A stretch of DNA of 64,000 bases from an uncultured Lachnospiraceae bacterium (GTDB lineage Bacteria > Bacillota > Clostridia > Lachnospirales > Lachnospiraceae). Numbering within the stretch: the first letter of the stretch is position 1; each line of letters opens with the position of its first letter. Under the pieces are notes generated by a model. The model searched no databases. It was not told the DNA's origin and worked only from the letters and a program-made list of their open reading frames with translations. The stretch spans positions 2,070 through 66,069 of the forward strand of contig CAJUNP010000013.1 of assembly GCA_910587935.1 (NCBI GenBank), written 5' to 3'. Made by a program: the position numbers and the translations under genes. Positions 5,639 through 64,000 of this stretch are shown here, in pieces.

Positions 5639-5667
5639 AAATCATACCCGGCGCTTTCTTTTCCTTA

Positions 5668-6598: not shown

Positions 6599-6625
6599 GT
6601 TGTAATAATTTTTTCATATTCTGAC

Positions 6626-7148: not shown

Positions 7149-7263
7149 AAACATCCTCCTGACAAAAGCGTCGTCAACTGTTACCGTAATATTATAGCAC
7201 ATGCCGTATACTCCCGTAAAGTGTTGCTGCGGTTTGTCATATCGCGTATTTTCAGGACAATTT

Positions 7264-7509: not shown

Positions 7510-7907
7510 ATTACTCATCCCTTCCGGGCATAAAGAGCCCATTATTGTCTGCGTATATGATTACCCTCAAAATCTTTAGTATACAAATCCATATACAGGG
7601 TCACTTCTTTTAAGTTTTTTTGCCGCCTATGGTATAAGGAATATAAACGACGCCATGCTGGTCAAAGCTGATAACCGATTCGCCCTCGTTTAGGGAGTTT
7701 GGCGTCACTCTTCGGTAGCGCCGTTGTAAACAGGATCTGCATGATAACATGAAATACGGGTAACCTGGCCGGTAGAAGGTATGGCCGTACGGATGCTTTG
7801 TATATGGACTCATTATTGCATGAAAAAAGAAATGCGTCAATGTTGCGAATGGGAATACACAGTGCTAAAATTAAAATATAAATTATGTATAACAGGAGGA
7901 CGCAGAA

Positions 7908-8750: not shown

Positions 8751-8813
8751 TAACAAACAACAGCCTCGCAGATCCCGGCAATACTCAGATTTCCGCGAGG
8801 CTGTTTCCGGCTT

Positions 8814-10776: not shown

Positions 10777-10937
10777 ATTACTGTGTCTGATTATAGCATA
10801 TTTTTAGTAAATATGGTGAATAAAGATATAAAAAAGTTAAATTTTAAAATGTTTTCTATGCAGCCTGATAAAAATGAGATATAATAGTGAAAATAACACT
10901 AAAATTTCGTTTTGTAGCAGGAAGGAGAATTAAATCT

Positions 10938-47812: not shown

Positions 47813-48217
47813 ATGAAAAAGTTATTTATATCAATAGCTTGATAATGTCGTTTGAAATGAAGTGGTTTTATTTGATATATTTAGTATAGGAGATATTTTT
47901 GACAAAAGAATGGAAAGGGATTGAAGTTTTATTGAATGATTTGTAAATAAAATGTGAACAGGGAACAAGATGCAATGTATATTTTTTGCAAGTAAGTTGA
48001 ATTAAAAAAATGAAAAAGTGCAGTTGAATTTGATTTTATATCAGTATAAAATTAAATTGATATGAGTTATCTTCACTGTAATTCCATTGTAATAGAAAGG
48101 TGGAATGAAGTATGGAAGCCAAAAACAGCAATAGCATATACCGGTTGCAGCCTAAGTTTCTGGTCAAGGAAGAGCAAAAAGCGCAGGAAGAAAATAGAGA
48201 ACCCATTATCATCCCTC

Positions 48218-48304
48218 ACTTCAGTAATTCAGGAGATAATGGGTCATGCAAACACCTCCATAGCGATGGATATATGTGCCAAAGCTACGGAGGAAACTGC
48301 TTAA
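48218..48304 (+). pseudogene. Tyrosine integrase C-terminal stub
   Basis: TSVIQEIMGHANTSIAMDICAKATEETA matches the conserved integrase tail (.iQe.mGH..i.tTmdiYa.). The catalytic Tyr position reads Cys. Upstream codons show no integrase similarity. The stop overlaps the ppiB stop. Confidence 0.55.
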
Positions 48305-48822
48305 AGCTTCTCCGGTTCAGGATATTCCACTCCGAAAGTCTCGACGGTAACCGTCTGCATTACTTGATTTTCAAGAGGTCTGTCGGAATAATCGGTAGGC
48401 GTTTCAGCAATACGGTTCACCACTTCCATACCTTCTATTACCTTCCCGAAAGCGGCATACTGGCCGTCTAAGTGCGGACTGGTTTTGTGCATAATAAAAA
48501 ACTGGGAACCGGCGGAGTCCGGCATCATGCTGCGGGCCATGGAAAGAACGCCCTCCGTGTGTTTCAGATCGTTGTCCACGCCGTTTGCGGAAAATTCTCC
48601 CTTAATACTGTAACCGGGGCCGCCCATGCCGTTTCCTTCCGGGTCGCCGCCCTGAATCATGAAGCCGCGGATAACACGGTGGAAAATCAGACCGTCATAA
48701 AAATATTTTTGAATCAGGCTGATAAAATTATTGACGGAAACGGGTGCAATTTCGGGATACAGTTCCGCTTTGATTACATCCCCGTTTTCCATAGTAAAAG
48801 TTACAACAGGATTTTGTGCCAT
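48301..48822 (-). CDS. ppiB: Peptidyl-prolyl cis-trans isomerase, cyclophilin type
   Basis: 173 aa. Motifs FHRVIRGFMIQGGDP, GPGYSIKGEF, LSMARS...DSAGSQFFI. Confidence 0.95.
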   Translation of the reverse strand: MAQNPVVTFTMENGDVIKAELYPEIAPVSVNNFISLIQKYFYDGLIFHRVIRGFMIQGGDPEGNGMGGPGYSIKGEFSANGVDNDLKHTEGVLSMARSMMPDSAGSQFFIMHKTSPHLDGQYAAFGKVIEGMEVVNRIAETPTDYSDRPLENQVMQTVTVETFGVEYPEPEKL

Positions 48823-48920
48823 ATTATTTCTTCCCTTCTGTTTGGTTATATAATACTCATAATAACCATTGTAACGGAAAATAGCGGGAACGTAAAGCTA
48901 AAGTATACAAAAGGAGCGCC

Positions 48921-49781
48921 ATGTTACGAAACGTTATAATTATTTTTGATAAATGTTATATGTCTGGTTTCAATACAAAGTATGAGTCTGGTCTGGAGCA
49001 AATCAGACAGGAAATGCAGCAACAGGGAATTTCTCTGCAGTGGCAGGCTGCCGCAGCGGGGGAAGATCTGGCAAAGGAAAGCCAGGGGTGCCTGTATATA
49101 ACCGACAGCCCTGAAATTTTTGAAGCGCTTAAATTAAAAGGCTTTTATGCAGCGGCATTAATGCATGACGGGAACGGCGGCGTGTCGTTTCAGGGAAATT
49201 GTTATATTCTGCAGGGATTGGAAGGAATGGAGTATGCCTATCTGGAGGATGTTTACCGAAGGCTGGCGGGACAGCCATGGGATATTTTGGAGACAGGGAG
49301 GCTTAAGGTAAGGGAGAGCACAGTGGAAGACGTGGACGAATTTTACAGGATTTACAGGGAACCGTCCATTACTTATTACATGGAAAATTTGTTTGAACAG
49401 CCGGACATGGAAAAGGCTTATATAAAAAATTATATCCGGCAGGTCTACGGATTTTACGGTTACGGTCTCTGGACCGTGCTTTTAAAAGAAACAGGGCAGG
49501 TGATTGGACGCGCCGGATTAAGCGTAAGGGACGGCTATGAATTGCCGGAGCTTGGATTTGTAATCGAAACGTCGCAGCAGAGAAAAGGATATGCATACGA
49601 AGTGTGCAAAGCCATTCTTAATTATACTAAAGAAGAACTACAGTTTGGCGCAGTGCAGGCACTGGTTCAGGAAGAAAATAAAGCGTCGGTCAGTCTTTTG
49701 AACAGGCTGGGATTTACGTATCGGGAGAAAGTGTATGAGGAGGGAACGGATTATCTTTTATATGTGAAGACACTGGACTAA
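48921..49781 (+). CDS. GNAT N-acetyltransferase (RimJ/RimL-like C-terminal domain) with uncharacterised N-terminal domain
   Basis: 286 aa. C-terminal half LKVRESTVEDVDEFYRIY ... GYGLWTVLLKETGQVIGRAGL ... ELGFVIETSQQRKGYAYEVCKAILNY. The N-terminal roughly 130 aa have no motif I recognise. The start is uncertain. Confidence 0.7.
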   Translation: MLRNVIIIFDKCYMSGFNTKYESGLEQIRQEMQQQGISLQWQAAAAGEDLAKESQGCLYITDSPEIFEALKLKGFYAAALMHDGNGGVSFQGNCYILQGLEGMEYAYLEDVYRRLAGQPWDILETGRLKVRESTVEDVDEFYRIYREPSITYYMENLFEQPDMEKAYIKNYIRQVYGFYGYGLWTVLLKETGQVIGRAGLSVRDGYELPELGFVIETSQQRKGYAYEVCKAILNYTKEELQFGAVQALVQEENKASVSLLNRLGFTYREKVYEEGTDYLLYVKTLD

Positions 49782-49823
49782 GTAAAAAATTGCAACATAA
49801 AAAATTGCATGTTGAAAATAGTA

Positions 49824-49852
49824 TTGACATTTCCTGTTTATTACGGTAAAGT
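49824..49852 (+). promoter_or_regulatory. Possible sigma-A promoter
   Basis: TTGACA (49824-49829), 17-nt spacer, TAAAGT (49847-49852). It lies about 180 nt upstream of the next gene. Confidence 0.3.
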
Positions 49853-50032
49853 AAAGCTACCGTGATAGCAGGACGCTGCTATATATCAGTAATATTTCTT
49901 ATATTTATCAATTTATTAATTCTGAGTTCTATGGAATTCCGGCTGTATCAGCCTAGTTTCAGTATTTTGTGCCGTTATATAATTAAGAGCATGTAGACAA
50001 CAAATGGGTAATTTTATTTGGGAGGATTACTA

Positions 50033-50431
50033 TTGAGGGGAAAATTAACAAAGCATTGGAGGCAGGAGTTGAGATGCCTGCTTGAAGACCAGCGAAAGAC
50101 CGAATACTTTGTGAAAAAATTATTACGCCGTATTTTTGAAGAAGATGTTATTTTATGCGGCCTGCGTACAAGTACACCCGAAAAAGAGAAAAAATTGGCC
50201 GATACCGACGCGGTGGTTCTGAAGCTGACTGTTTTAACGGGCCGGCAGGAAAGAGATATACTATTAAGAATCTGTGAAGAGACGGCGGACAGGGAATCCG
50301 CGACAGCTGTTATCCTGCATTATTACTGCGTGGAAGCGCCGGCGATTCTGGTTGACAGCGGTACGGCGGAGATCCGTGTAACCGTTGATTCCGAATTGGA
50401 AGACCTGATTTGGCAGACCGCAGATCATTAA
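50033..50431 (+). CDS. Hypothetical protein
   Basis: TTG 50033 lies 7 nt after GGGAGG; the track starts at TTG 50018. About 132 aa with no recognised motif. Lies upstream of CotF-like genes. Confidence 0.4.
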   Translation: MRGKLTKHWRQELRCLLEDQRKTEYFVKKLLRRIFEEDVILCGLRTSTPEKEKKLADTDAVVLKLTVLTGRQERDILLRICEETADRESATAVILHYYCVEAPAILVDSGTAEIRVTVDSELEDLIWQTADH

Positions 50432-50512
50432 TAAAAATTAATATTTTCAATATGAATAAAAGCCATGCTTCTGCACACAATAAGTTTGTATAAACTTCAA
50501 GGAGGCATGGAA

Positions 50513-50698
50513 ATGACAAACATCTCAGAATTAGAACTTCAGAATTTACGTCATCTGATCGGCGGTTTTGACACCACCCACTGTAAGATGAAAGAGTATG
50601 CATCCTGTGCGCAGGACGCAAAAGTAAAACAGTTTTTTGAAAAAGGCGCACAGTCGGCACAGGAAAACAAACAGACGCTCATGAAATTTTTGCAGTAA
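50513..50698 (+). CDS. Small spore-coat-associated (CotF-neighbour) protein
   Basis: ATG 50513 lies 7 nt after GGAGG, giving 61 aa. Helical and Cys-containing (THCKMKEYASCAQDAKVKQFFEKGAQSAQENKQ). Paired with a Coat-F-like gene, as commonly seen in Clostridia. Confidence 0.45.
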   Translation: MTNISELELQNLRHLIGGFDTTHCKMKEYASCAQDAKVKQFFEKGAQSAQENKQTLMKFLQ

Positions 50699-50713
50699 AG
50701 GAAGGTGTAAAGT

Positions 50714-50974
50714 ATGGAAATGCAGGAAAAGACAATGGTAGCCGATACCCTGACCGGTATCAACGGAGAATTGGTACGTTACGCAGAGATGATCCCCCAG
50801 ACGGAGAATAAAGAATTGAAACAGACATTGAAACAGTTCCGCATGGCCTGCGAGCAGTCACAGGAAGAACTGTATCAGATCGCAAGGGACAAATCATACT
50901 ACGTTCCGGCGCAGAAAGCGACCACAGAAGAAGTAGAACACGTAAAAGGACTTTTTACTTCTAAGACTCTTTAA
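50714..50974 (+). CDS. Spore coat protein, Coat F (CotF)-like
   Basis: 86 aa. RBS AAGGAAGGTG. MVADTLTGINGELVRYAEMIPQTENKELKQTLKQFRMACEQSQEELYQIARDKSYY matches the Coat_F helical pattern. Confidence 0.6.
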   Translation: MEMQEKTMVADTLTGINGELVRYAEMIPQTENKELKQTLKQFRMACEQSQEELYQIARDKSYYVPAQKATTEEVEHVKGLFTSKTL

Positions 50975-51183
50975 AAATGAATGCGTAATATAGAGTAAGA
51001 CGAAAGAAAAAGGCAGGGCTCATTTTCGACAGGAAGGTGGGCTTTGTCAGATACATAACTACAAGTAGCCAATTATTGTCTTTTTTTGGTTTTTTTGGTT
51101 TATTTTTAAACAACCTCTTGTTTCGTGGGAAAACCTTTGCTACTATAAAGTCAGAACCTTTAACCGGTTAGTAAATAAAGATA

Positions 51184-51930
51184 ATGGAGGGACGAATTTT
51201 GAGAATTTATAAGGCGAAAGATTATGATGAGATGAGCAGAAAGGCTGCTAATATTATTTCGGCACAGGTTATTTTAAAGCCGGACTGTGTTTTGGGACTG
51301 GCAACCGGATCTACGCCGATTGGCACCTATAAAAAGCTGATCGAATGGTACGAAAAGGGAGATCTTGATTTTTCCGAAGTGACCAGCGTGAATCTTGACG
51401 AATACAAAGGACTGGATAAAGAAAACGATCAAAGCTACTATTATTTTATGCATACGAATTTCTTTAATTACGTTAATATCAGTCCGGACAGCATTAACCT
51501 TCCTAACGGTATGGAACCGGACAGTGATAAAGAGTGTGCAAGATACGATGAAGTGATTCGTTCCGTTGGCGGCGTGGATCTGCAGCTTTTAGGACTTGGC
51601 CATAACGGACATATCGGTTTTAACGAGCCGGCGGAAGAGTTCAAAAAAGGAACGCACTGCGTTGACCTGCAGGCAAGCACGATCGAAGCTAACGCAAGAT
51701 TTTTCGCAAGCATGGATGAAGTTCCCAAACAGGCGTATACTATGGGAATCAGAACCATTATGTCTGCAAAGAAGATTCTTGTAGTTGTAAGCGGCGCAGA
51801 CAAAGCGGGCATTGTTAAAAAAGCGTTTACCGGCCCTGTTACTCCTCATGTGCCGGCGTCTCTCTTACAGATGCACTCGGATGTAACCGTTGTCGGTGAT
51901 GCGGCGGCATTGTCAGAATTGGATATCTGA
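51184..51930 (+). CDS. nagB: Glucosamine-6-phosphate deaminase
   Basis: Motifs LGLATGSTP and LLGLGHNGHIGFNEP. The true start may be TTG 51199 (8 nt after GGAGGG), which gives MRIYKAKDY. Confidence 0.95.
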   Translation: MEGRILRIYKAKDYDEMSRKAANIISAQVILKPDCVLGLATGSTPIGTYKKLIEWYEKGDLDFSEVTSVNLDEYKGLDKENDQSYYYFMHTNFFNYVNISPDSINLPNGMEPDSDKECARYDEVIRSVGGVDLQLLGLGHNGHIGFNEPAEEFKKGTHCVDLQASTIEANARFFASMDEVPKQAYTMGIRTIMSAKKILVVVSGADKAGIVKKAFTGPVTPHVPASLLQMHSDVTVVGDAAALSELDI

Positions 51931-51944
51931 GGAAAGGATATTTT

Positions 51945-53069
51945 ATGATAATCAAAAATGTTAAAGTATTTCAGGATAACGGAGTTTTCGTGCCGGGAGA
52001 GATTTATATTGAAGGTGACAAATTTACCGATTCATCTGACGGCGCGGGGCAGGAAGTTATTGACGGGAACGGCTGCTATGCAATTCCGGGTCTGACGGAT
52101 GTTCATTTTCATGGATGTGTGGGTTATGACTTTTGCGACGGCACAGTGGAAGCCATTAAGGCAATGGCCGAATATGAACTGGATAACGGCGTGACCGCGA
52201 TTGCTCCCGCAACTATGACTCTTTCCGAAGAAATGCTGACGGAGGTTGCCCGCGCGGCAGCGGCTTATGACGGCAGGACAGGAGCCGACCTGGTGGGAAT
52301 TAATATGGAAGGCCCTTTCATTTCCATGGAAAAGAAAGGCGCACAGAATCCCGCGTATATTCATAAACCGGATGCGGCAATGTTCAGGCGTCTGCAGGAA
52401 GAATCGGGCAATAAATTTAAGCTCTGTGCCATTGCTCCGGAGGTAGAGGGCGCAATTGATTTTATCCGTGAACTGAAGGACGAGGTAGTGCTTTCCGTTG
52501 CCCATACCACTGCGGATTATGATACGGCTAAGGCAGCGTTTGGCGCAGGTGCAAGACAAGTAACGCATTTGTTTAACGCCATGCCTCCGTTTACACATCG
52601 TGCGCCGGGCGTTGTTGGGGCGGCTTGTGATAATGAGGAAGTAAAGGTAGAGATGATCTGCGATGGTGTGCATATGCATCCATCCGTAATACGTACGGCC
52701 TTTAAGATGTTTGGCGACGACAGGATTATTATGATCAGCGACAGTATGATGGCCACCGGCAAACCGGATGGAACCTATGCCCTTGGCGGACAGGATGTAA
52801 CGGTTAAGGGCAACGTGGCGACGCTTACGGAAGGCGGCGCAATTGCAGGGAGCGTTACAAACCTGATGAACTGTGTCCGTTATGCTGTAAAGGAGGCCGG
52901 AATTCCTCTGGAAAGCGCGGTTAAGTGCGCCGCTGTTAATCCGGCGAAAGCGATAGGCATTTTTGACAGATATGGAAGCATTGCCGCAGGAAAGTATGCG
53001 AATGTCGTACTACTGGATCAAGATTTGAATATTGAGCATATCATTAAGAGTGGAACAGTTGTGAAATAA
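51945..53069 (+). CDS. nagA: N-acetylglucosamine-6-phosphate deacetylase
   Basis: 374 aa. Motifs PGLTDVHFHG, NMEGPF, VAHTTA, THLFNAM, ISDSM. Confidence 0.95.
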   Translation: MIIKNVKVFQDNGVFVPGEIYIEGDKFTDSSDGAGQEVIDGNGCYAIPGLTDVHFHGCVGYDFCDGTVEAIKAMAEYELDNGVTAIAPATMTLSEEMLTEVARAAAAYDGRTGADLVGINMEGPFISMEKKGAQNPAYIHKPDAAMFRRLQEESGNKFKLCAIAPEVEGAIDFIRELKDEVVLSVAHTTADYDTAKAAFGAGARQVTHLFNAMPPFTHRAPGVVGAACDNEEVKVEMICDGVHMHPSVIRTAFKMFGDDRIIMISDSMMATGKPDGTYALGGQDVTVKGNVATLTEGGAIAGSVTNLMNCVRYAVKEAGIPLESAVKCAAVNPAKAIGIFDRYGSIAAGKYANVVLLDQDLNIEHIIKSGTVVK

Positions 53070-53098
53070 ATTTGACTGATATCTCCAAGAATATAATA

Positions 53099-53134
53099 CA
53101 AAAACTGCGTCTGGTTTTGCCAGGCGCAGTTTTT
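53099..53134. terminator. Bidirectional rho-independent terminator
   Basis: AAAACTGCGTCTGG (53101-53114) pairs with CCAGGCGCAGTTTT (53120-53133). Confidence 0.8.
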
Positions 53135-53149
53135 GTGTAATGATATCGG

Positions 53150-53461
53150 CTATTTGCGATGTAATCCTTTTGAGACTGCCAGTACTGTATGAAGCTGCGT
53201 ATCATCCAAGTATTTTAGTTCTTCCAGAATTTCGTTAATTAAAGGCGGGTTTGTAACATCCGTGTCAAAAAAATCTTTTGGTGTAATATCCAGATATTCA
53301 CAGATATAGAAAAAGGCAGCCATGGAGGGAAAGGCAAGTTTGTTTTCAATACGGTTAATATAACTGCAGTTTTGTCCGATAGCCAGGCTCATTTCTCTTG
53401 CAGAAACATTTTTCTGCATACGTAAAAAGGCGATTCTGTCAGCAAAAAAATCTTCATACAT
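53150..53461 (-). CDS. XRE-family helix-turn-helix transcriptional regulator
   Basis: About 103 aa from ATG 53461. HTH VSAREMSLAIGQNCSYINRIENKLAFPSMAAFFYICEYLDITPKDFF. Confidence 0.8.
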   Translation of the reverse strand: MYEDFFADRIAFLRMQKNVSAREMSLAIGQNCSYINRIENKLAFPSMAAFFYICEYLDITPKDFFDTDVTNPPLINEILEELKYLDDTQLHTVLAVSKGLHRK

Positions 53462-53670
53462 AAATATCACCCTCCTATAAGTTATTATATGCTATAACTC
53501 TTTTGAAATCAGATATTGAAAATAGTAAAATAGACGAAACAAGATATAGTATGACCTGAAGTGCACAATTTAAGATATCAAATCATTAAAATAACATATT
53601 CCGGAAGATGGTACTGCATGACATCATATAAATTAGAAAATTTACTATGTGGGCAGAAGGGGGTATTGTT

Positions 53671-54369
53671 ATGTTAAATTATATTTGGGCATTTATGATT
53701 TTGGTGGGAGTTCTTTTCGGAGCGGTCACGGGAAAAATGGAGGCTGTTACAAACGCGGCAATTGATTCGGCAGGAGAAGCCGTTTCCTTATGCGTCACCA
53801 TGCTTGGTGTTATGGCTTTATGGGTAGGACTTATGGAAATTGCCAGGAATTCCGGCCTGATTGCTAAGATGACCCGGGGGATACAGCCTTTTATTTCTTT
53901 TATGTTTCCGAAAATTCCCCAGGGTCATGCGGCAAGAGAATACATTTCGACGAATATTATTGCGAATGTTATGGGATTAGGCTGGGCCTGTACGCCGGCA
54001 GGATTGAAGGCCATGGAGGAGCTGGCGAAGCTGGAGGAGGAGAGGGGGACGCCGGGATATGTGTCGGCAGGGGAAGGCATTTTTGCAGACGGAAAGAAAA
54101 AGGGGAACAAGACAGGTAAGAGCGGCGTTGAGTTGCCCGTGGTGGCAAATGGAAAGAGCGGCAGGGTTGCCAGCAATGAGATGTGCACGTTTTTGATTTT
54201 GAATATTTCTTCTTTGCAATTAATACCCGTGAATATGATCGCGTACAGAAGCCAGTATGGGAGCGTGAATCCGGCGGGGATTATTGCGCCGGCGATTGTG
54301 GCGACGTTTGTCAGTACGGCGGTAGCGGTGGTATATTGTAAGGTGAAGGATGGGAGGCGGAGAGTTTGA
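53671..54369 (+). CDS. spmA: Spore maturation protein A / nucleoside-recognition (Gate) domain membrane protein
   Basis: ATG 53671 follows GAAGGGGG. MLNYIWAFMILVGVLFGAVTG ... ANVMGLGWACTPAGLKAMEEL ... MCTFLILNISSLQLIPVNMIAYRSQYGS.NPAGIIAPAIVATFVSTAVAVVYCKV. It contains an unusually long G/K-rich loop (GYVSAGEGIFADGKKKGNKTGKSGVELPVVANGKSG). Confidence 0.85.
   Translation: MLNYIWAFMILVGVLFGAVTGKMEAVTNAAIDSAGEAVSLCVTMLGVMALWVGLMEIARNSGLIAKMTRGIQPFISFMFPKIPQGHAAREYISTNIIANVMGLGWACTPAGLKAMEELAKLEEERGTPGYVSAGEGIFADGKKKGNKTGKSGVELPVVANGKSGRVASNEMCTFLILNISSLQLIPVNMIAYRSQYGSVNPAGIIAPAIVATFVSTAVAVVYCKVKDGRRRV
54001..54369 (+). repeat. Direct repeat copy A: 3' end of spmA (in frame, part of the intact gene)
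   Basis: Homologous to 56641-56941. Shares the block GLKAMEELAKLE and the last roughly 70 codons. The identical 15-mer CTGGCGAAGCTGGAG is at 54022-54036. Confidence 0.85.
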
Positions 54370-54492
54370 GGACTTTCCGCTTTATTCATTAGTTATATCC
54401 CAATGTTTTATCGGATACATATAAGAAAATATATGAGAAAAACAAGGTATAGCATATATAAAATTATGATATTATTGGATTATATATTGCCA

Positions 54493-54521
54493 TTGACATA
54501 TAAAAATTAGAAATGTATAAT
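54493..54521 (+). promoter_or_regulatory. Perfect-consensus sigma-A promoter of the cassette
   Basis: TTGACA (54493-54498), exactly 17 nt, TATAAT (54516-54521). It lies 29 nt upstream of ATG 54551. Confidence 0.65.
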
Positions 54522-54550
54522 AGCATAAAATATTGGAAAGGACTAATTGG

Positions 54551-55531
54551 ATGAATTATCAAAATATTATTGATGACTTTATAACAGAATATCCAGATTA
54601 TAAAAGTGATGTAATGAATTTTACCGAATATCTGGAAATACATTGGGGAAATTCTTTGTCGGGAGAACCACTCCGTATTTTACTTAAGGGTATAGACGTT
54701 GAATTTATATTACAGAGCCTGATTTATAATGTGGAAGATATACAGCGATATAAGAGCAAGACAAAGGCTAAACGGTATGCCACCGTGGTAGGATTGCTTT
54801 TTAACTACATCCGAAAGACTACAGATATTGCAAACCCTGAATTATATGATGCAATTTCGTTTAACCGCCTGCGGGAAAATTCATATATGAAACGAATGAT
54901 GGCATATATTGAGAAATGTGATTTGCTTGCGGGTATAGTTGAGCAGGAACCGTTGACGTTTATGCAAGCCGAAGAACTTTTGGCATGGTCAAATGAACAG
55001 CTTGAAGATACAGAATGGGGAGGGGCTACGGATCTTAAGAAGGCAATGGCGGCTATCGGAATAAAGATGATGATGCTTTATGGGATCACATATCGTGAAT
55101 TGAGAAAAATCAAATGGGAGAATTTCGATGAATATTATGGTTTTATTACAGTAAATGGTTTTGAACTTCGTTTGCCGCCCAAATTGTCAAGGCAGTTACA
55201 GCAAGTGCAGAAATTTGTTTTTCAGAATCATGTAAAGAGCAATGAGGACTTGCTTTTTACGGATGGGAATGGAGAACCGTGGGGGGAGATAACATCTTCT
55301 TCTGGAATTCCCGACTATTTAGGGACTTTGATAGAAGTTACAAGTGTAACCAGCATTGTCAAGTATGGAATAGGACAACTTCTCAAGGCTGGGTTAAGTG
55401 ATTCTGTTATTAAAAAAATAACAGGTGCAAGTGATAAACTGATTCAAGGGTGTCTCTTGACAGAGGATGATGAACTCAAAAAGACTATAAATAATAAAAT
55501 TGTTATGGCAGAGTTATATTATGAGTTTTGA
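54551..55531 (+). CDS. Tyrosine-recombinase-like protein lacking most catalytic residues
   Basis: ATG 54551 lies 8 nt after AAAGGA, giving 326 aa. An N-terminal SAM-like/core-binding-like region is followed by LYGITYRELRKIKWENFD (Arg-I box retained), LLFTDGNGEPW, SVTSIVKYGIGQLLKAGL in place of H-x-L-R-H, ITGASD in place of LGHS, and LIQGCLLT in place of the Tyr box. Confidence 0.6.
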   Translation: MNYQNIIDDFITEYPDYKSDVMNFTEYLEIHWGNSLSGEPLRILLKGIDVEFILQSLIYNVEDIQRYKSKTKAKRYATVVGLLFNYIRKTTDIANPELYDAISFNRLRENSYMKRMMAYIEKCDLLAGIVEQEPLTFMQAEELLAWSNEQLEDTEWGGATDLKKAMAAIGIKMMMLYGITYRELRKIKWENFDEYYGFITVNGFELRLPPKLSRQLQQVQKFVFQNHVKSNEDLLFTDGNGEPWGEITSSSGIPDYLGTLIEVTSVTSIVKYGIGQLLKAGLSDSVIKKITGASDKLIQGCLLTEDDELKKTINNKIVMAELYYEF

Positions 55532-55563
55532 AGAAGATAGAGCAGACAGGGAGAGATAAATCT

Positions 55564-56598
55564 GTGGATGAAAATAAAGGTGAAGTTTTAATCTATCAGT
55601 CAGAAGACGGATTAACCAATGTCGAAGTAACTGTACGGGATGAAACGGTTTGGCTTTCCCAACAACAAATGGCAGAGCTGTTTCAAACGTCGAGAACAAA
55701 TGTTGTAGAACACATAAAACATATTTTTGCAGAAGGAGAATTAGACGAAGCCTCAACCTGTCGGAATTTCCGACAGGTTCGGCAGGAGGGAACAAGGCAG
55801 GTTACAAGAGAGATACCATATTATAATCTGGATATGATTATATCTTTGGGATATAGAATAAAGTCTCTTATAGCAACGAGATTCAGGAAATGGGCAACAG
55901 AACGTTTAAAGGAATACATGGTTAAGGGCTTTACGATGGATGACGAACGCCTTAAAGGCAATGGTGGAGGGAATTATTGGAAAGAGCTTTTAGACCGTAT
56001 TCGTGATATTCGTTCTTCGGAAAAAGTGCTTTATCGTCAGGTTTTGGATTTATATGCCACAAGTGTAGATTATGACCCCCATAGTGAGGAGTCGATTCGT
56101 TTTTTTAAAATAGTACAAAATAAGCTTCATTTTGCGGCACATGGACATACTGCGGCAGAAATAGTTTTTGAGCGTGCTGATGCACAAAAACCTTTTATGG
56201 GATTGACATCCTTTTCAGGAGAGTTACCTGCTCTTAAAGATATTGGAATTGCAAAGAATTATTTAAAGGAAGATGAACTAAAGATACTAAATAATTTGGT
56301 ATCTGGTTATTTTGATTTGGCGGAAATTAATGCGATTGAACATCGCCCAATGTACATGAATGATTATGTTGAACAGCTTGATTCGGTATTATCGTCAGGA
56401 AATAGAAAAATACTCAGTGATGGTGGCAGAGTAAGCCATGCTCAGGCAATGAAAAAAGCAAAAGAAGAATACCAAAAGTATCAGGCAGCCACAATTTCTC
56501 CGGTTGAGGACGCTTACCTAAAAACAGTAAAAATGGCAGCTAAAGCAGCAAAACAGCAAAACAGGCTGGTAGAAAAAACAAATACTGATGGACGATAA
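55564..56598 (+). CDS. RhuM-family protein (PF13310-like)
   Basis: VLIYQSEDGLTNVEVTVRDETVWLSQQQMAELFQTSRTNVVEHIKHIFAEGEL ... YNLDMIISLGYRIKS..ATRFRKWATERLKEYMVKGF ... WKELLDRIRDIRSSEK is the hallmark RhuM N-terminal pattern. GTG 55564 (7 nt after GGGAGAG) is preferred. TTG 55528, which overlaps the upstream stop, is the alternative. Confidence 0.7.
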   Translation: MDENKGEVLIYQSEDGLTNVEVTVRDETVWLSQQQMAELFQTSRTNVVEHIKHIFAEGELDEASTCRNFRQVRQEGTRQVTREIPYYNLDMIISLGYRIKSLIATRFRKWATERLKEYMVKGFTMDDERLKGNGGGNYWKELLDRIRDIRSSEKVLYRQVLDLYATSVDYDPHSEESIRFFKIVQNKLHFAAHGHTAAEIVFERADAQKPFMGLTSFSGELPALKDIGIAKNYLKEDELKILNNLVSGYFDLAEINAIEHRPMYMNDYVEQLDSVLSSGNRKILSDGGRVSHAQAMKKAKEEYQKYQAATISPVEDAYLKTVKMAAKAAKQQNRLVEKTNTDGR

Positions 56599-56640
56599 TG
56601 ATGTTATTTTTAAAGTTCGTGTCATTAACTTGACACAAGG

Positions 56641-56941
56641 GGGGCTGAAGGCGATGGAGGAACTGGCGAAGCTGGAGCAAGATAGAGGGAATCCGGCGTA
56701 TTTGAGTGATAGTAAGAGAACGGGTGGAAAGCAGGAGCGTATTGCAAGTAATGAAATGTGTACATTTTTGATATTAAACATTTCATCGTTACAGCTGATC
56801 CCCGTTAATATGATTGCTTACAGGCAGCAGTACGGGAGCGTGAACCCGGCGGGAATCATTGCCCCGGCAATTATGGCGACATTTGTGAGTACGGCGGTGG
56901 CAGTAGTATACTGCAAAGTGAAAAATAGGAAAAAAATCTAA
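56641..56941 (+). pseudogene. Direct repeat copy B: headless 3' fragment of an spmA gene
   Basis: Encodes GLKAMEELAKLEQDRGNPAYLSDSKRTGGKQERIASNEMCTFLILNISSLQLIPVNMIAYRQQYGSVNPAGIIAPAIMATFVSTAVAVVYCKVKNRKKI. The roughly 110 N-terminal residues of SpmA are absent, and the upstream 17 codons of the tracked ORF are unrelated. Confidence 0.8.
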
Positions 56942-56959
56942 ATAACTTATAAAAATCCA

Positions 56960-56987
56960 TTGATGTTGCAAAAAAATATGATACAAT
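56960..56987 (+). promoter_or_regulatory. Putative promoter of the cas operon (extended -10)
   Basis: TTGATG (56960-56965), 16-nt spacer ending in TG, then TACAAT (56982-56987). It lies 71 nt upstream of cas3. Confidence 0.45.
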
Positions 56988-57058
56988 ATTACTAATAAAA
57001 ATTATTTATTTGCATTTTCCACAAACGAAAAATCAGGAGATAATTTATTGTAATTAAT

Positions 57059-59500
57059 ATGATTGCACACATTTCAGAAGACGGACTTAAAAGAGAAGAA
57101 TCTGTAGCGGAACACACCGAAAAGACCAGATTGTTATGCGATCAAAAAGGGAAGCGGTGCGGTATTTCCCAGCTTATGTCATTATGCGCAATTTTGCATG
57201 ATATGGGAAAAAACAAGCGCAAATTTGACGAATACCTGCGTGCGGATGAAAAAGTAAGACAAAAGTTAAAAGGCAGCATTGCCCATGCTTCTACAGGGGC
57301 AAAGTATGTCTATGACCTGCTCCGTGACGATACCGCCAACATGCGGTTGATGACAGAGATGATTTCTTATGCGTCAGCTGCGCATCACGGGTTATTTGAC
57401 TGTGTGGATCCGGAATATACCGATAGATTTTCAAAAAAATTAAGTGCGGTTGACGATTATGATGAAGCTTGCCGCAATGCAAAGCGGGATTATCTGGATG
57501 CGTATGATCAGGATCAATTATTTGCGGAGTCGTTTTGTGAATTTCAAGCTGTTTTGGAAAAAATTAAAATCATATATAACGAACTTAAGCCTGCGCTGTT
57601 ATCTAAGGGCAATCGAGATATAAAAGAACGATTATCCGGCTGCAGGCTCTTTTTGTTTTCCTGTTTGCAGCGCCTGATTTTATCCATATTAATTGATTCG
57701 GACTGGGAGGCAACCTCCGATTTTATGGAGAATGTGGACACAATGTCAAAAAAGCCGCGTTTTCCTGTAAAAGAGCGCTTTAAAAAAGCTGGGGAAAATT
57801 TTGCGTCATATATGCGGAAAAAACAGCAGTCCATAAATATTTCCGGACTGACGGATAAAGAAAAAATCATTTTTGAAGCAAGAAATGCGCTGCAGGAGGA
57901 ATGTAGACAGTTTGCAAAATATCCTGCCGGGATATACTGTCTGCCTGTCCCTACCGGCGGCGGAAAGACGCTCGGCAGCCTTGCGTATGCATTGGAATAC
58001 TGCAGGCTTCACCCCGAAACGGAACGCGTTATCTATGTGTCTCCATATATCAGCGTTACGGAGCAGAATGCGCAGGTATTCCGCGAAGCCATAGGCAATG
58101 ACGACTGGATATTGGAACATCATTCTTCCGTTGTCAGAAATGAAAGGACAGAAGATGAGGATTACAAAACCGAAAAGCTGTCGAGGTATGACATAAACTG
58201 GGAAGAACCGTTTATCTGTACAACATTCGTTCAGTTTATGAATACGCTTTTTTCGGATAAAAGCGAGTCCGTACGGCGTATGCACAGGCTTGTCAACGCG
58301 GTTGTCATTATCGATGAAGTGCAGTCGATGCCGTTAAAATGCGTACATACTTTTAACTATATGATTAACTTCCTGAATAAAGTATGCAATACGGATATTG
58401 TTCTGTGTACCGCGACGCAGCCGGCTTTAGCGGAAACCGAGTGCCCTGTCTGTTACGGAAAACCGCAGTACATGATTAAAAATGTTGCCGACTGGTTTTA
58501 TAAGTTTGAACGGGTCAGGATACATACGCCCGGAATAGACGAAAAGTATACCTTTAAGAGCCTCGGGGACGAAATTCTGGAAAGGACAGAGCGGTTCAAA
58601 TCAATTCTTGTGGTGCTGAATACGAAGTCGGCGGTGAGAAAGCTGTATGATATATTAAAAGCGCGGGGGATTCCTGCGGAGTATCTTACCACAAACTTAT
58701 GCGCCGAGCACAGAAGCGATAAGATTAAGTCCATAAAAGAAATACTGGAGAAAAAGCAGAAGCCGATTGTTGTAGTCAGTACGAATCTGATCGAGGCGGG
58801 CGTGGATATTTCCTTTGAATGTGTATACCGTTCTATGGCGGGGCTGGACAGTCTGGCACAGACGGCGGGACGGTGCAACCGAAACGGCGAACTGGATTAT
58901 GGGACAATCCGCCTGATTCAGCTTGAGGATGAAAAAACCGGAAATATGGAAGAATTACAGCAGAATATCAGGGCGGCGGAAAACGTTCTATACCAGTTTG
59001 AGAACAGCGATAAGCGGGAAAGCCTTCTGATGCCCGGATGGATGGAAACATATTATCGGAATGTGTACTGTAATATGTCGGACACAATGAATTTTCCGAT
59101 CAAAAAACTGGATACAAATATACTGGAACTCCTGTCGGCCGGATTTGGTACGCCGGGAACCATGGGAGACAGGAAAAACCAGATGAATCAGGCGTATAAG
59201 ACCGCGGGCCGGGAGTACCGGGTGATAGACGACGATTCATTTGGCGTAATTGTGCCATATAAGAAAGGGGCGGAGATTATTGAAGCCATTCAGACGGCGG
59301 CGGATACGGCGCAGATAAAAACACATATAAGAAATGCCCAGAGGTATACGGTAAACGTCAGGGGAAGCCAGTTGAAAAAATTCAGCGGACTGATACAGGC
59401 GGTAAGCGATTCCGTACCGGGCCTTTATATGGCGGCCGCGCCGGGATCGTACAGCCTGGAATATGGGATTACGCCGGAGTGGGAGACCCTTATATTTTAA
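57059..59500 (+). CDS. cas3: CRISPR-associated helicase/endonuclease Cas3 (HD nuclease + SF2 helicase), type I-C context
   Basis: 813 aa. HD domain VAEHTEKT...AILHDMGKNKRKF...AAHHGLFD. Helicase motif I LPVPTGGGKTLGSL, motif II VVIIDEVQSM, motif III CTATQP, motif VI AQTAGRCNRNG. Confidence 0.9.
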   Translation: MIAHISEDGLKREESVAEHTEKTRLLCDQKGKRCGISQLMSLCAILHDMGKNKRKFDEYLRADEKVRQKLKGSIAHASTGAKYVYDLLRDDTANMRLMTEMISYASAAHHGLFDCVDPEYTDRFSKKLSAVDDYDEACRNAKRDYLDAYDQDQLFAESFCEFQAVLEKIKIIYNELKPALLSKGNRDIKERLSGCRLFLFSCLQRLILSILIDSDWEATSDFMENVDTMSKKPRFPVKERFKKAGENFASYMRKKQQSINISGLTDKEKIIFEARNALQEECRQFAKYPAGIYCLPVPTGGGKTLGSLAYALEYCRLHPETERVIYVSPYISVTEQNAQVFREAIGNDDWILEHHSSVVRNERTEDEDYKTEKLSRYDINWEEPFICTTFVQFMNTLFSDKSESVRRMHRLVNAVVIIDEVQSMPLKCVHTFNYMINFLNKVCNTDIVLCTATQPALAETECPVCYGKPQYMIKNVADWFYKFERVRIHTPGIDEKYTFKSLGDEILERTERFKSILVVLNTKSAVRKLYDILKARGIPAEYLTTNLCAEHRSDKIKSIKEILEKKQKPIVVVSTNLIEAGVDISFECVYRSMAGLDSLAQTAGRCNRNGELDYGTIRLIQLEDEKTGNMEELQQNIRAAENVLYQFENSDKRESLLMPGWMETYYRNVYCNMSDTMNFPIKKLDTNILELLSAGFGTPGTMGDRKNQMNQAYKTAGREYRVIDDDSFGVIVPYKKGAEIIEAIQTAADTAQIKTHIRNAQRYTVNVRGSQLKKFSGLIQAVSDSVPGLYMAAAPGSYSLEYGITPEWETLIF

Positions 59501-59525
59501 CATAAAGAGAAAGGACGGGTGAAGC

Positions 59526-60272
59526 ATGGACAAGCCTAATATCATTGAATACAGCGTATTCGGGAGATATGCATTATTTACGGACCCTGTGTCTAAGACA
59601 GGCGGAGAAAAGTGCAGCTACCAGATACCTACTTATCAGGCGCTGAAAGGAATAACGGAATCCATATATTGGAAACCTACCATAACGTGGATTATTGATG
59701 AGTGCCGTATTATGAGTCAGATCCGGACGGAATCGAAAGGAATGAGACCGATAAAATACGGCGGCGGCAACGATTTAGCCTATTATACCTATCTGCACAA
59801 CGTGGAATATCAGGTAAGGGCGCACTTTGAATGGAATGAAAGCCGGGAAGATCTGGCACAGGACCGCAATGAAAATAAACACTACGACATTGCCAGAAGA
59901 ATGGTTGAGAGAGGAGGACGGAGGGATATTTTCCTGGGCGCGAGAGAATGTCAGGGATATGTGGAGGCCTGTTCTTTTGGGGAAGGAAAAGGAGCGTATG
60001 ACGGGATGGATATGTCCTACGGCATCATGGTGCATGGCATCACATATCCGGACGAGGCTGTCAGAGAAGAGGAAAAAGGAAAAATGACGGTGCGGCTTTG
60101 GAACGCACAGATGAAAAACGGAGTTCTGCATTTTCCGCGTCCGGAGGAATGTACGATCCGCAAGGTTCTGCGTGATGCAAAAGAAAAGCGGTTTGTGCCG
60201 GGGCAGAACTTCAGGGGATTACAGGAATTTGAAGGAGGTGAGTTATTTGGCTTTGCTAAAGACTTTGGCTGA
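59526..60272 (+). CDS. cas5: Cas5d (Cas5c) pre-crRNA endoribonuclease subunit, type I-C
   Basis: 248 aa. [42 protein letters not shown] ... [16 protein letters not shown] is closely similar to characterised Cas5d proteins. Confidence 0.9.
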
Positions 60273-62169
60273 TACCTATGATGTCTTTGCCGACCAGGCG
60301 GGAGCCGATAAGAACGGGCAGCCGGTGTTGCTGCCGATTTCCCATTCGACCTTTAATGCCCAGATAGAGGTGGCGATCGATCAGGATGGTAATTTTCAGG
60401 GAGCCAAAAAGCTTGAAAAGGGCAGGGATGTGGTGACAATTATCCCGGTCACAGAAGATTCGGCGGCCAGGAGCAGCGGCATTGCGCCGCATCCACTGTG
60501 TGATAAGCTCTGTTATGCGGCGGGAGATTATACCCTGTATACGGGCGATGATAAGGAAGCGTATTTTGAGGCCTACATTGAGTTGCTGCGGGATTGGGCG
60601 GAATCTGAGTTTACACATCCCATGGTAAAGGCGGTATACCAATATGTAAATAAGAAATTGCTGATACAGGATCTGGTAATGAGTAAAGCGTTGGAATTGG
60701 ACGAAGACGGTAAGCTCACGGATCACGTTAAAATACACGGACAGGGACAAACGGGAGCTAATGTACGGTTTGTAGTCCGAGGAAACAGTATGCCGCAGGA
60801 AGTGTGGAAGAATCAGGAGCTATATAATAGGTACTGTGAATATTATAAACAAAAATCAGAGGGAAAGCAGCTGTGTTATATATCCGGCGATATTGTATCC
60901 TGCTCTGACAAGCATCCGTCCAAGATCCGTAACAGCGGCGATAAGGCAAAGCTGTTATCGGGAAATGATGAATCCGGTTTTACATACCGCGGAAGGTTTA
61001 CTTCAAAAGAACAGGCGGTTACGGTCGGATATGACACGTCCCAGAAGGCGCATAACGCGCTTCGGTGGCTGATTCAAAAGCAAGGGTATACGCGTGATGA
61101 ATCGGCGATTGTCTGGTGGATGACAAACCGGGATATGCAGCTTCCGGATATGATGAAGGACTCCGTCAACGCATGGCAGGCGGTAGACGACTTTGACTTT
61201 GACAATATTGCTTCCGATGAGACTGTAAAGCGTGATACGGGTAAATATTTTGCGGAGCAGTTTAACAATGCGGTAAACGGTTATGCCGGAAAGGTCAGGG
61301 TGGATGACCGGGTTGCCGTTGCCGCTCTGGATGCGGCGACAACGGGGCGCCTTTCGGCCGTGTACTATGATGAAATGGGCGGAAAGCAGTATATCGATGC
61401 AATACTGAACTGGCAGCAGCATTGTAAGTGGCGCCGTACCATTAAATTGGGAAGGACGGAAGAAAGTATAAAAAGAATTACCTGCGAGTGTACGCCGTCC
61501 CCCAGGGATATGGCGCTTGCAGCCTTTGGTGTACAGAGATCGGAATGGCTGGAGGCGGATGGGAAGCTGCTTCGCGCAACGGTTAAACGGCTGCTCCCAT
61601 GCATCACGAAAAAGGGAACGCCGATTCCCGAAGATATGATTAAAGCGGCGGTGCGGCGGGCGTCCATGCCGCAGACAATGAGCGAATTTGTCTGGTATAA
61701 CGACGTGCTGTGCGTTGTATGCGCAATGATACGGTATAAATATGAGCAGAGAGGTAAAGCAATGGAAAATTTTTTGAATGACAACGAAAACGATCGAAGC
61801 GTTCTTTTCGGGCGGCTGCTGGCAGTGTATGATTTTATGGAACAGCAGGCAATGTTTGAATATGACGAAAACGGCAAGGTGAAGGAACAGCGGACAACCA
61901 ATGCAAAGCGTTACTGGAATGCGTATAGCAGCAGGCCGGCAAGAACGTTAAAGGCAATCAGACAAAATCTGGTTCCTTATGAAAAAAAGCTGAAGGACTA
62001 CAATCGGAAAAGGTTTGAGGATTGGGCAGGCGGCATTATGATGCGCATGGACAGAAATATCTATGATAACACGCCCCTGTCGGAACTGTATTTACCCGCA
62101 TATTATCAACAAATGGAATGGATGAAAAACGAGTATTGGAAAAAAGGCGAACAGGAGTCTGCGGACTGA
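60247..62169 (+). CDS. cas8c: Cas8c (Csd1) large subunit, type I-C
   Basis: TTG 60247 lies 6 nt after GGAGGTG, giving 640 aa. Size and position between cas5d and cas7/csd2 fit, as does the N-terminus [12 protein letters not shown]. The 60172 start in the track would overlap cas5 by 100 nt. Confidence 0.8.
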
Positions 62170-62198
62170 CAAACGAAAAGAAAGGCGAGGATAAAAGT

Positions 62199-63050
62199 AT
62201 GAGCGAATTTACAAACAAAATTGATTTTGAAGTTTTGGCAATGGTTAAAAATGCGAATCCCAACGGCGATCCGTTAAATGGTAACAGGCCGCGCGAGACC
62301 TACGACGGATATGGAGAAATTTCAGACGTATGTATTAAACGAAAAATCAGAAACCGACTGCAGGATATGGGTGAAAAGATTTTTGTTCAGAGTGACGAAC
62401 GGTCTGACGACGGGTGTAAGAGTCTTGCGGACCGGGCCAAGAGCAACGAACTGATGCAGAAAGCGTTAAAGGAAAAAGATAAAGAGACTTATGCAAAGGC
62501 GGCCTGTGAGACATGGATCGATGTGCGCAGCTTTGGTCAGGTGTTTGCATTTAAAGACGACAGTGTATCCGTCGGCGTAAGAGGTCCCGTATCGGTTCAT
62601 TCTGCGTTCAGCGTATTGCCGGTGTCCATTGACAGTATGCAGATTACCAAAAGCGTTAACAGCGAAACGGAAAAAAGCGGAAAGAAATCCTCCGACACCA
62701 TGGGAATGAAACACAAAATATACTCGGCTTTATACGTTATAAAGGGAAGTATCAACTGCCAGCTTGCCGAAAAGACAGGGTTTGGGGATGAAGACGCGGA
62801 GAAAATCAAAGAGGCGCTTCGTACTTTGTTCGTAAACGACAGTTCGTCCGCAAGGCCGGACGGAAGCATGGAAGTTTGCAAGGTATACTGGTGGAAGCAT
62901 AATTGTCCTGCAGGACAGTACTCATCGGCAAAGGTCCATAAGCTTGTAAGGATTGAGGCAAAAACGGATGATCCCAAGGAGTTTGAAGATTACGAAATAA
63001 AAGTAGATTCTCTGCCGGATCTGGCTTTGGAAGAAATAGAAGGTATTTAA
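62199..63050 (+). CDS. cas7: Cas7 (Csd2) backbone subunit, type I-C
   Basis: ATG 62199 follows AAAGGCGAGGA, giving 283 aa. FEVLAMVKNANPNGDPLNGNRPRETYDGYGEISDVCIKRKIRNRL is the canonical Csd2 N-terminus. Confidence 0.9.
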   Translation: MSEFTNKIDFEVLAMVKNANPNGDPLNGNRPRETYDGYGEISDVCIKRKIRNRLQDMGEKIFVQSDERSDDGCKSLADRAKSNELMQKALKEKDKETYAKAACETWIDVRSFGQVFAFKDDSVSVGVRGPVSVHSAFSVLPVSIDSMQITKSVNSETEKSGKKSSDTMGMKHKIYSALYVIKGSINCQLAEKTGFGDEDAEKIKEALRTLFVNDSSSARPDGSMEVCKVYWWKHNCPAGQYSSAKVHKLVRIEAKTDDPKEFEDYEIKVDSLPDLALEEIEGI

Positions 63051-63052
63051 TT

Positions 63053-63712
63053 ATGTATTTTGAAGAAGACTATCTGATGCTTTCCGGGATACAGCATTTT
63101 GCTTTTTGCAGAAGGCAGTGGGCGCTGATACATATCGAACAGCAGTGGACTGATAATTACAGGACAACCGCTGGTGAACTGATGCACAAAAAAGCCCATG
63201 ACGCGGGTTCCTTTGAGAAGAGGGGAAATTTACTGATCGTCAGAGGAATGAGAATTACATCCCGCGAACTGGGCCTGAGCGGACAGTGCGATGTTGTCGA
63301 ATTTCGTCAGAATGAGAAGGGTATCGATTTATTCGGGTATGATGGGAAATGGAGTCCGAAGCCTGTAGAATACAAGCATGGTGTACCCAAAGAAAATAAT
63401 GCAGATGAACTACAGCTGTGCGCACAGGCAATATGCCTTGAGGAAATGTTTCAGACACAGATACCGGACGGAGATTTGTATTACGGTGAAAACAGACGCC
63501 GCAGTCATGTGGAATTTACGGACAGTTTGCGGGAAGAAGTAAAAAGGGCGGTAAAGGAAATGCACGATTTATTTCAAAGAGGTTATACGCCCAATGTTAA
63601 GCCTGCTAAGAAATGCAAGGCGTGTTCCCTGGAAAATCTGTGTGTTCCAAAGCTGCAAAAGGCAATAAGGGTCAGGGAATATATCAGACAGGGTATTAAG
63701 TCAGATGATTAA
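63053..63712 (+). CDS. cas4: Cas4 (RecB-like exonuclease with 4-Cys cluster)
   Basis: 219 aa. N-terminal Cys FAFCRRQW, nuclease motif CDVVEF...PVEYKHG, QLCAQAICLEE, C-terminal CKACSLENLC. Confidence 0.9.
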   Translation: MYFEEDYLMLSGIQHFAFCRRQWALIHIEQQWTDNYRTTAGELMHKKAHDAGSFEKRGNLLIVRGMRITSRELGLSGQCDVVEFRQNEKGIDLFGYDGKWSPKPVEYKHGVPKENNADELQLCAQAICLEEMFQTQIPDGDLYYGENRRRSHVEFTDSLREEVKRAVKEMHDLFQRGYTPNVKPAKKCKACSLENLCVPKLQKAIRVREYIRQGIKSDD

Positions 63713-63756
63713 ATGTCAAAAAGCGTTTTCAGACAGAATATACAGGGAGTGTTAAT

Positions 63757-64000
63757 GTGCGGAAATTACTGAATACTTTATATGTTATGACAGAGAATTG
63801 TTATTTGACTCTTGAAGGCGAAAATATCGTGATACTGGATGGTGAGAAAACACTGGGGAGATTCCCGCTTCACACACTGGAGAATATCATATGTTTTACT
63901 TACAAGGGGACAAGTCCGGCGTTAATGGGGGCCTGCGTGGAACGGAACACAGGAATCAGTTTTTTCTCTCCGAGAGGAGCGTTTCTGGCGAGGGCTGTCG
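63757..64000 (+). CDS. cas1: Cas1 integrase, N-terminal part (continues beyond the window)
   Basis: GTG 63757 follows GGGAGTG. RKLLNTLYVMTENCYLTLEGENIVILDGEKTLGRFPLHTLENIICF is the typical type I-C Cas1 N-terminus. The frame is open to the window edge. Confidence 0.85.
   Translation, partial: MRKLLNTLYVMTENCYLTLEGENIVILDGEKTLGRFPLHTLENIICFTYKGTSPALMGACVERNTGISFFSPRGAFLARAV

Follow-up and report, generated by a model that had tools for sequence, protein, structure and literature searches.

A probable site-specific cassette carrying a substitute gene 3' end in an spmA-like gene of gut Lachnospiraceae

Why does the 3' end of a gene occur twice, in the same orientation, on either side of a block of AT-rich DNA? 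This question is raised by the window analysed here, a stretch of 64,000 nucleotides from an uncultured Lachnospiraceae bacterium of the mouse gut (assembly GCA_910587935.1, contig CAJUNP010000013.1), in which the last ~120 codons of an spmA-like membrane-protein gene are present as copy A (54001-54369) and copy B (56642-56941). Our analysis makes it probable that positions 54001-56641 are a 2641-bp site-specific integrative cassette, inserted in codon ~118 of this gene. The cassette opens with its own diverged version of the last 123 codons, so the chromosomal gene stays intact as a chimaera of a native 5' part and a cassette-borne 3' end. It belongs to a cassette family that is widespread and apparently undescribed, with an integrase look-alike (here called INT), which lacks the usual catalytic tyrosine, as the only gene that its autonomous members share. 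All features described below lie on the forward strand; loci and contigs of other genomes are labelled L, and homologous proteins P.

The doubled 3' end and the empty site

The open reading frame (ORF) at 53647-54369 (240 aa) is an intact spmA-like gene of the Gate-domain 'nucleoside recognition' kind, and its homologues are named 'nucleoside recognition protein' in public sources. The start at 53647 is that of the ORF finder; relatives start at ATG 53671, which gives 232 aa. Copy A is in frame and completes the gene with 123 codons and a stop. Copy B is a headless copy of the last ~100 codons (99 codons plus stop, with an open frame) inside the ORF listed at 56588-56941, which reads into it from the end of the element. 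A previous sequence-only reading of the window had described this doubling, and the alignments agreed with it. BLASTP aligned the two copies at E=8e-55, with 82/123 positions identical and one 22-residue loop gap. The DNA homology begins at 54001 and 56642, and the longest identical run is, as had been said, the 15-mer CTGGCGAAGCTGGAG, at 54022 and 56663. Over gap-free blocks, nucleotide identity was 77%, the proportion of synonymous differences (pS) was 0.78 (0.85 in the transmembrane core) and the proportion of nonsynonymous differences (pN) was 0.07 (0.03 in the core), in line with the many synonymous differences noticed before. Near-saturated synonymous sites together with few amino-acid changes indicate that the copies are old and independently constrained and do not stem from a recent local duplication. 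AT-rich DNA separates them, also as claimed: GC content is 0.24 in the intergenic region and 0.37 and 0.38 in the first and second genes, versus 0.45 in the surroundings.

The name spmA is the label of that reading and was not confirmed. The Gate match was sub-threshold in Pfam (21.8 bits versus a cut-off of 29.6), the NCBIfam search gave no match and no spmB was found next to the gene. A candidate spmA-spmB pair at window ORFs 5048-6204 was rejected, as these ORFs encode an HD-domain protein and an isochorismatase. We also observed that the loop between the two conserved blocks of the 3' end (54062-54154 in copy A) is hypervariable in length and sequence, as are the equivalent positions in L005-L013, and that it varies even among cassettes 91-96% identical over their remaining DNA. 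Slippage in a Gly/Lys-rich stretch, recombination between copies and selection are candidate causes.

To decide which copy is native, we set 120 homologues against the 5' part of the window gene and against both 3' copies. In alleles P0087 and P0113, a window-type 5' part (108/109 aa) goes with a copy-B-type end (98/100 aa). P0113 is encoded by L001 and L002, contigs from two sequencing runs, in which the spmA-like gene is followed directly by cas3 with nothing between. Their gene order is that of the window (nagB, nagA, a helix-turn-helix gene, the spmA-like gene, cas3, cas5, cas8c, cas7, cas4, cas1), and they represent, in conspecifics, the empty-site allele for which the sequence-only reading had suggested a search. 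L001 aligned with window 48166-54063 at 98.4% identity (left flank) and with 56642-64000 at 97.7% (right flank), and the two alignments overlap by 63 nt, where the two copies are alike. These flank alignments place the inserted block at 54001-56641, 2641 bp. At the border of two BLAST segments, the ~109 bp at window 48057-48165 are absent from the otherwise 98% identical L001/L002; this extra DNA may be a small indel or a miniature insertion.

The native 5' part of the gene (53671-54000, ~110 codons) keeps its 98.4% identity to L001/L002 up to ~54000 and has a GC content of 0.455. Copy B (GC 0.46) matches it in composition, matches the end of P0113 at 98/100 aa and is covered by the 97.7% DNA identity to L001; it is the displaced native end at the far border. 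Copy A (GC 0.528) is foreign. Copy-A-type ends with a near-identical 41-residue loop are found on 5' parts of 53-100% identity to that of the window, among them 5' parts only 53-89% identical, which is expected only if the copy-A end moves horizontally. These findings, together with the recurrence of the block in another species (L005, below), support the view that an element inserted in the 3' end of the gene and supplied a substitute end.

A third state of the locus was found within the same species, in L004, where the right flank and that of the window are 99.7% identical. This contig has a different cassette-type 3' end, the same intergenic region and a right end; its INT gene is deleted, its RhuM gene is a frameshifted remnant and its copy B is internally deleted. 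L004 thus holds a decaying cassette. Elsewhere on that contig, at L004 1718-2195, two adjoining fragments with Phage_integrase (PF00589) matches lie upstream of a peptidyl-prolyl isomerase gene (PF00160); they look like a broken canonical integrase and are absent or different at the same place in the window.

The crossover point and the spread of the cassettes

To locate the crossover, we aligned three sequences, the empty site and the two junctions. At the left junction (attL, 53999-54003) the sequence is native up to ...ACGCCGGC, ending in ...CCGGC, and cassette-type from GGATTGAAGGCC on, and the similarity to L005 starts at 54001. At the right junction (attR, ~56641-56643) it is native from GGGCTGAAGGCG on. 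The exchange thus lies within ~2-3 nt (NGG), right where the imperfect 63-nt homology begins on its 5' side. A crossover at a point where one side has no homology indicates site-specific and not homologous recombination. Immediately to the left of the right junction lies a 30-nt right-end motif, AAAGTTCGTGTCATTAACTTGACACAAGGG (56612-56641), which contains the inverted repeat GTGTCA-N6-TGACAC at 56619-56636 and has one match in the window versus 0 expected by chance. As for the shared attachment (att) core that was to be sought at both borders, the alignment shows a crossover NGG within imperfect 63-nt homology, adjoined on the element side by the 30-nt motif, and no long identical repeat.

The cassette recurs in other genomes. 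In L005, from another species, positions 6487-9146 correspond to window 54001-56704 at 95.6% identity; the match, which includes copy A, starts exactly at the left border, and outside the block nothing aligns. Complete cassettes of 2554-2662 bp with the window-type INT gene, and with RhuM where this was scored, were also found in other arrays. A scan for INT with one genome per species gave 45 loci, and INT was at least 94% identical in 15 species-representative genomes. At nearly all of the 45 loci, a copy of the spmA-like 3' end, headless or part of a full-length gene, is followed after ~200 bp by an INT-superfamily gene. Cultured carriers include Lachnospiraceae bacterium 28-4, A4 and IMSAGC_002, bacterium 0.1xD8-71 and Parablautia intestinalis (loci L026, L023, L005, L009 and L028). 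The right-end motif stands directly before every headless copy, in the same orientation, across these loci; where headless copies have the motif, full-length genes have ordinary coding sequence. When metagenome contigs were scanned by the motif alone, at least 120 carried it followed by a headless 3' end within ~25 nt. The spmA-like gene is thus, as had been suspected from the window, an integration hotspot, with cassette arrays at this gene in many Lachnospiraceae.

At many loci the cassettes stand in tandem: the native 5' part is followed by repeats of 3' end, optional INT, cargo and right end, and the native 3' end comes last. Four 3' ends were counted in L023 and three each in L026, L111 and L121; L035 and L084 are further arrays. 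The 37 complete cassettes measured 1344-8133 bp (median 2662 bp), and 19 of them contain an INT-family gene. Most headless 3' ends (76/125) are still intact reading frames. INT and the upstream 3' end were correlated in identity (Spearman 0.42), INT and the downstream 3' end were not (-0.13), as calculated from 13 cassettes with both neighbours readable, whose pairs are not independent. Since INT tracks the upstream end, each 3' end belongs to the cassette on its right.

The integrase-like protein and the movement of the cassettes

INT (54551-55531, 326 aa; ORF finder start TTG 54533) is the first gene of the insertion. It follows the AT-rich intergenic region (54370-54550), which is kept with the cassette in L004 and L005, and a perfect promoter-like site, TTGACA-17-TATAAT at 54493-54521, lies just upstream of it. 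The sequence-only reading had assigned an integrase fold to this gene, and structure prediction upheld the assignment. The AlphaFold2 model (mean predicted local distance difference test score 85.5) has the two-domain fold, and all 28 of its Foldseek matches at E<=1e-3 were tyrosine recombinases, with XerA on top (E=4.9e-6), then XerH, Tn1549 Int, Cre and lambda Int. Sequence searches found no match for INT in Pfam (including PF00589), NCBIfam, PADLOC or the PDB sequences, and the PHROG integrase match was at E=0.003 only. Given a fold match without a sequence-profile or catalytic match, we classed INT as having the tyrosine-recombinase fold while lying outside the family as defined by sequence and catalytic residues.

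An exhaustive profile search showed that the INT superfamily comprises 282 clusters at 50% identity. Conservation was read from an alignment of 109 sequences (108 superfamily clusters and INT), in which K172, G178, P209, F236, K271, I287, T291 and C301 are near-invariant, C301 being Cys in 105/109. A smaller alignment of 34 sequences gave no hhalign match to XerD or Cre; with all 109 sequences, E. coli XerD (sequence entered by hand) was matched collinearly but weakly (E=3.5e-4, probability 37%). A sister branch, INT2 (360 aa, same superfamily at E=3e-31), follows 3' ends in the corresponding position in L003, L009, L029 and many metagenome contigs; where the XerD nucleophile aligns, it conserves Tyr-Tyr.

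The superfamily also occurs at other sites. INT relatives (71-73% identical) lie directly downstream of gltD (glutamate synthase small subunit) in three species, followed by defence-like cargo (L016 6824-7813, L024 7106-7975, L034 6607-7596). Neither a duplicated gltD end nor a direct or flanking repeat was found at these three loci; they may mark another insertion site, one that is built differently. Two more remote INT-superfamily genes (51% and 35% identical) stand beside serine recombinase genes or fragments at L041 2241-5114 and L047 6525-10430. These two contexts are unrelated to the spmA-like gene, and the INT superfamily is therefore not restricted to this site.

We propose that a circular form of the cassette recombines through its attP with attB in the spmA-like gene. 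In attP, the right-end motif would adjoin the 5' edge of the 3' end that the cassette brings, and the exchange would fall within the 2-3 nt NGG. INT or INT2 is predicted to recognise the site and probably to catalyse the reaction; both roles are suggested by their being the only shared gene, by the classical integrase position and by the perfect promoter-like site in front of the gene. Cassettes without INT may be mobilised in trans or may be decayed copies, and successive insertions would push older 3' ends further downstream. As most displaced ends are intact, excision of the upstream cassettes would restore a working gene.

Several observations weigh against an INT-driven cassette of this kind. 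At the crossover, attL and attR share just ~2-3 identical nt, which tyrosine recombinases do not usually do. The 109 superfamily sequences have no conserved tyrosine, and the canonical catalytic set is not present: in the mapping on XerD, which depends on the weak hhalign match and the hand-entered XerD sequence, the XerD residues R148, R247 and Y279 fall on T/K, K271 and L302 (beside C301), H244 on G/S, H270 on a variable position and K172 on a gap. Among the 37 complete cassettes, 18, some of them in first position, lack an INT-family gene. We looked for excision in the assembled Logan contigs of public runs and found no excised circle or attP junction specific to this cassette, and the metagenome contigs contained no small circular ones. 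No transfer vehicle was matched in the phage, IMG/VR or plasmid collections.

Candidate signs of excision in these contigs have another explanation. A joint that goes back 2641 nt, seen in one metagenome, shows 16 mismatches and fits a tandem array of another species; related arrays in other species account for such back-joints and for the greater depth of the element. An origin as a phage or satellite was dismissed, the right-end motif being absent from IMG/VR and INT having no tblastn match in the phage collection, and so was carriage on a plasmid, for which the plasmid collection matched distant RhuM genes only.

Two alternatives are far less likely. An ancient tandem duplication of the whole gene, with later deletion of the 5' part of the second copy and gain of foreign genes between the two, would account for the shared orientation of the copies and for both frames being open. 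We consider its probability negligible, because the conspecific empty site refutes it and because no locus with two 5' parts was found among the 45 genome loci and 120 metagenome loci listed; moreover, copy A travels with the cassette between species, and synonymous sites are saturated between the copies while the flanks are 98% identical. The other alternative is a Campbell-type insertion, in which a circle bearing an spmA 3' fragment enters by homologous recombination over the ~77% identical, 370-nt homology. The duplicated segments are long enough for some homologous recombination, and the fact that cassette 3' ends are mosaic and differ in a hypervariable loop indicates that recombination does occur inside the repeats. 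Such an exchange could hardly explain why, already within the first 2-3 nt of the homology, the left copy reads as cassette sequence and the right one as native sequence, that is, why the exchange lies at its very edge, nor why every array uses the same edge beside the conserved 30-nt motif, and the longest identical run is just 15 nt. The position of the crossover led us to reject this explanation as very improbable.

A more serious competitor accepts the same structure and history and places the recombinase elsewhere: strand exchange would be the work of a host Xer-like enzyme, or of an integrase or serine recombinase belonging to another element. In that case INT would have only an accessory part, in DNA binding, targeting or regulation, or would be a pseudo-enzyme, and the cassettes would behave like Xer-dependent modules or cis-mobilisable elements. 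This is a possibility that we regard as somewhat doubtful. It accords with a superfamily devoid of the conserved tyrosine and of the Arg-His-Arg set, with unchanged ends in the half of the complete cassettes that have no INT-family gene, and with an apparent crossover of 2-3 nt, similar to the 2-bp one of serine recombinases. Set against this, INT or INT2 is always the first gene after the carried 3' end, in the same orientation, which is the classical integrase spot beside attP, and it is the only gene that the cassettes share; no other recombinase gene was seen in the cassettes examined; INT2 conserves Tyr-Tyr at the XerD nucleophile position; and the site does not resemble known dif sites. 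We keep to the site-specific cassette with INT or INT2 as its predicted recombinase.

A bolder extension is that the INT superfamily forms a new class of recombinases, built on the tyrosine-recombinase fold without the Arg-His-Arg-Tyr set, which drives an integron-like stacking of self-contained anti-phage cassettes at a gene 3' end in gut Firmicutes. We think this improbable, though worth stating. On this view, one possibility is that the near-invariant Cys beside the old nucleophile position would serve as the nucleophile.

Cargo, neighbouring genes and related systems

The cargo gene of the window cassette (55528-56598) belongs to the RhuM family, with a match to PF13310 at 362 bits (cut-off 33.7; E=1.7e-108) and to the PADLOC candidate PDC-S05 (E=3e-156). 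Its TTG start overlaps the INT stop by 4 nt (55528-55531). A single 1991-nt contig in one run spans the INT and RhuM genes, which is consistent with one operon. That run, however, contains DNA: contigs longer than 100 kb occur in the 'metatranscriptomic' runs in which the element was found, and these runs gave no usable evidence of transcription.

Across the family, sequence matches suggest that the cargo is defence-like or of the toxin-antitoxin kind, typical of defence islands, and the functions named here are candidates. Besides RhuM-family proteins (PDC-S05), the cassettes carry a HipA-like kinase paired with a HIRAN/Couple_hipA protein (PDC-M03A/B), PIN and nucleotidyltransferase/HEPN-like toxin-antitoxin pairs, STAND NTPases, a radical-SAM protein that weakly matches prokaryotic viperins (PADLOC pVip), an AriA/Gabija-like ATPase, a type IIG restriction-modification enzyme, and RecQ-like and DprA-like proteins. 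A protein of ~530-550 aa with AAA-ATPase_like and PDDEXK_9 domains is a recurrent cassette gene after 3' end copies and is sometimes degraded (L017 10976-12631, L029 10615-12213, L049 8332-9525 and, as remnants, L005 9957-10796).

The sequence-only reading had also placed the site next to a CRISPR-Cas locus. This holds in the window, where cas3 of a type I-C operon begins at 57059, but it is not a trait of the family, being confined to this species and L013. The type I-C set at 57059-64000 looks complete (cas3, cas5d, cas8c/csd1, cas7 and cas4, with cas1 running off the window end); the operon starts 117 bp past the displaced gene end and directly follows the gene in the empty-site contigs. 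Far from the cassette, window 10887-18194 (+) holds a very long ORF of 2435 aa.

Among known systems, the nearest are integrative elements that target and restore the 3' end of a protein gene, for example Salmonella genomic island 1 (SGI1) at trmE and the ICESt1/ICESt3 family of integrative and conjugative elements (ICEs) at fda in Streptococcus thermophilus (see also PMC8409611, PMC2297512). The cassettes resemble these in their site-specific insertion in the 3' end of a conserved gene, their diverged substitute end, the native end at the far border and the tandem insertions. Unlike them, they have a new target gene, are tiny (2.6 kb and two genes in the window, with no relaxase, oriT or excisionase recognised), encode an INT that departs from the family in sequence and catalytic residues, and have an identical att core of ~2-3 nt.

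Composite islands of the staphylococcal cassette chromosome (SCC and SCCmec) at rlmH (orfX) are formed by Ccr serine recombinases at short (~15-bp) repeats, and ICEs and cis-mobilisable elements (CIMEs) also grow by accretion (see also PMC10581047). The arrays described here are similar to both in standing at the 3' end of one gene with repeated integration-site sequences between cassettes, in having a recombinase-type gene in only some cassettes and in their variable cargo, which includes defence genes. They differ from SCC because each repeat is a 300-370-nt gene end plus the 30-nt motif and because the candidate recombinase has a tyrosine-recombinase fold.

Small, mostly single-function cassettes in one orientation at one site, about half of them without their own recombinase, also recall integrons and Xer-dependent pdif modules. 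Integrons, however, have a fixed platform integrase beside attI, whereas INT lies inside the cassettes, sometimes several times per array; nor do these cassettes have an attC-type folded site, their ends being the 30-nt motif with its 6-bp inverted repeat and the gene fragment, and they bring their own promoters and a functional gene fragment. INT itself is like Xer, Cre, lambda Int and Tn1549 Int in its two-domain fold, its weak XerD match and the location of its gene beside the attachment site, and unlike them in having neither a PF00589 match nor a conserved tyrosine, in the replacement of the Arg-Lys-His-Arg-His/Trp-Tyr set and in the near-invariant Cys by the nucleophile position. Full-text literature searches returned no report of attachment at the spmA-like gene, nor of an integrase family without the tyrosine. 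What differs from the known systems is the target gene, the small, integron-cassette-like size, the near-absent identical core and the non-canonical integrase-like family; the logic of restoring a 3' end is known.

The superfamily is a sizeable, unannotated protein family with an integrase fold and no catalytic tyrosine, found exactly where an integrase would be expected. If INT is active, it would be a compact recombinase of 326 aa with a ~60-nt site pair and a chemistry of mechanistic interest; if it is inactive, the cassettes would be a clear case of mobilisation in trans by an enzyme yet to be found. The gene end and the 30-nt motif together offer a simple anchor for mining new defence genes in gut Firmicutes. 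For the bacteria themselves, the locus shows that a membrane-protein gene can be kept functional while acting as a landing pad, and it is a hotspot at which mouse-gut Lachnospiraceae gather and exchange small modules with candidate anti-phage and toxin-antitoxin functions.

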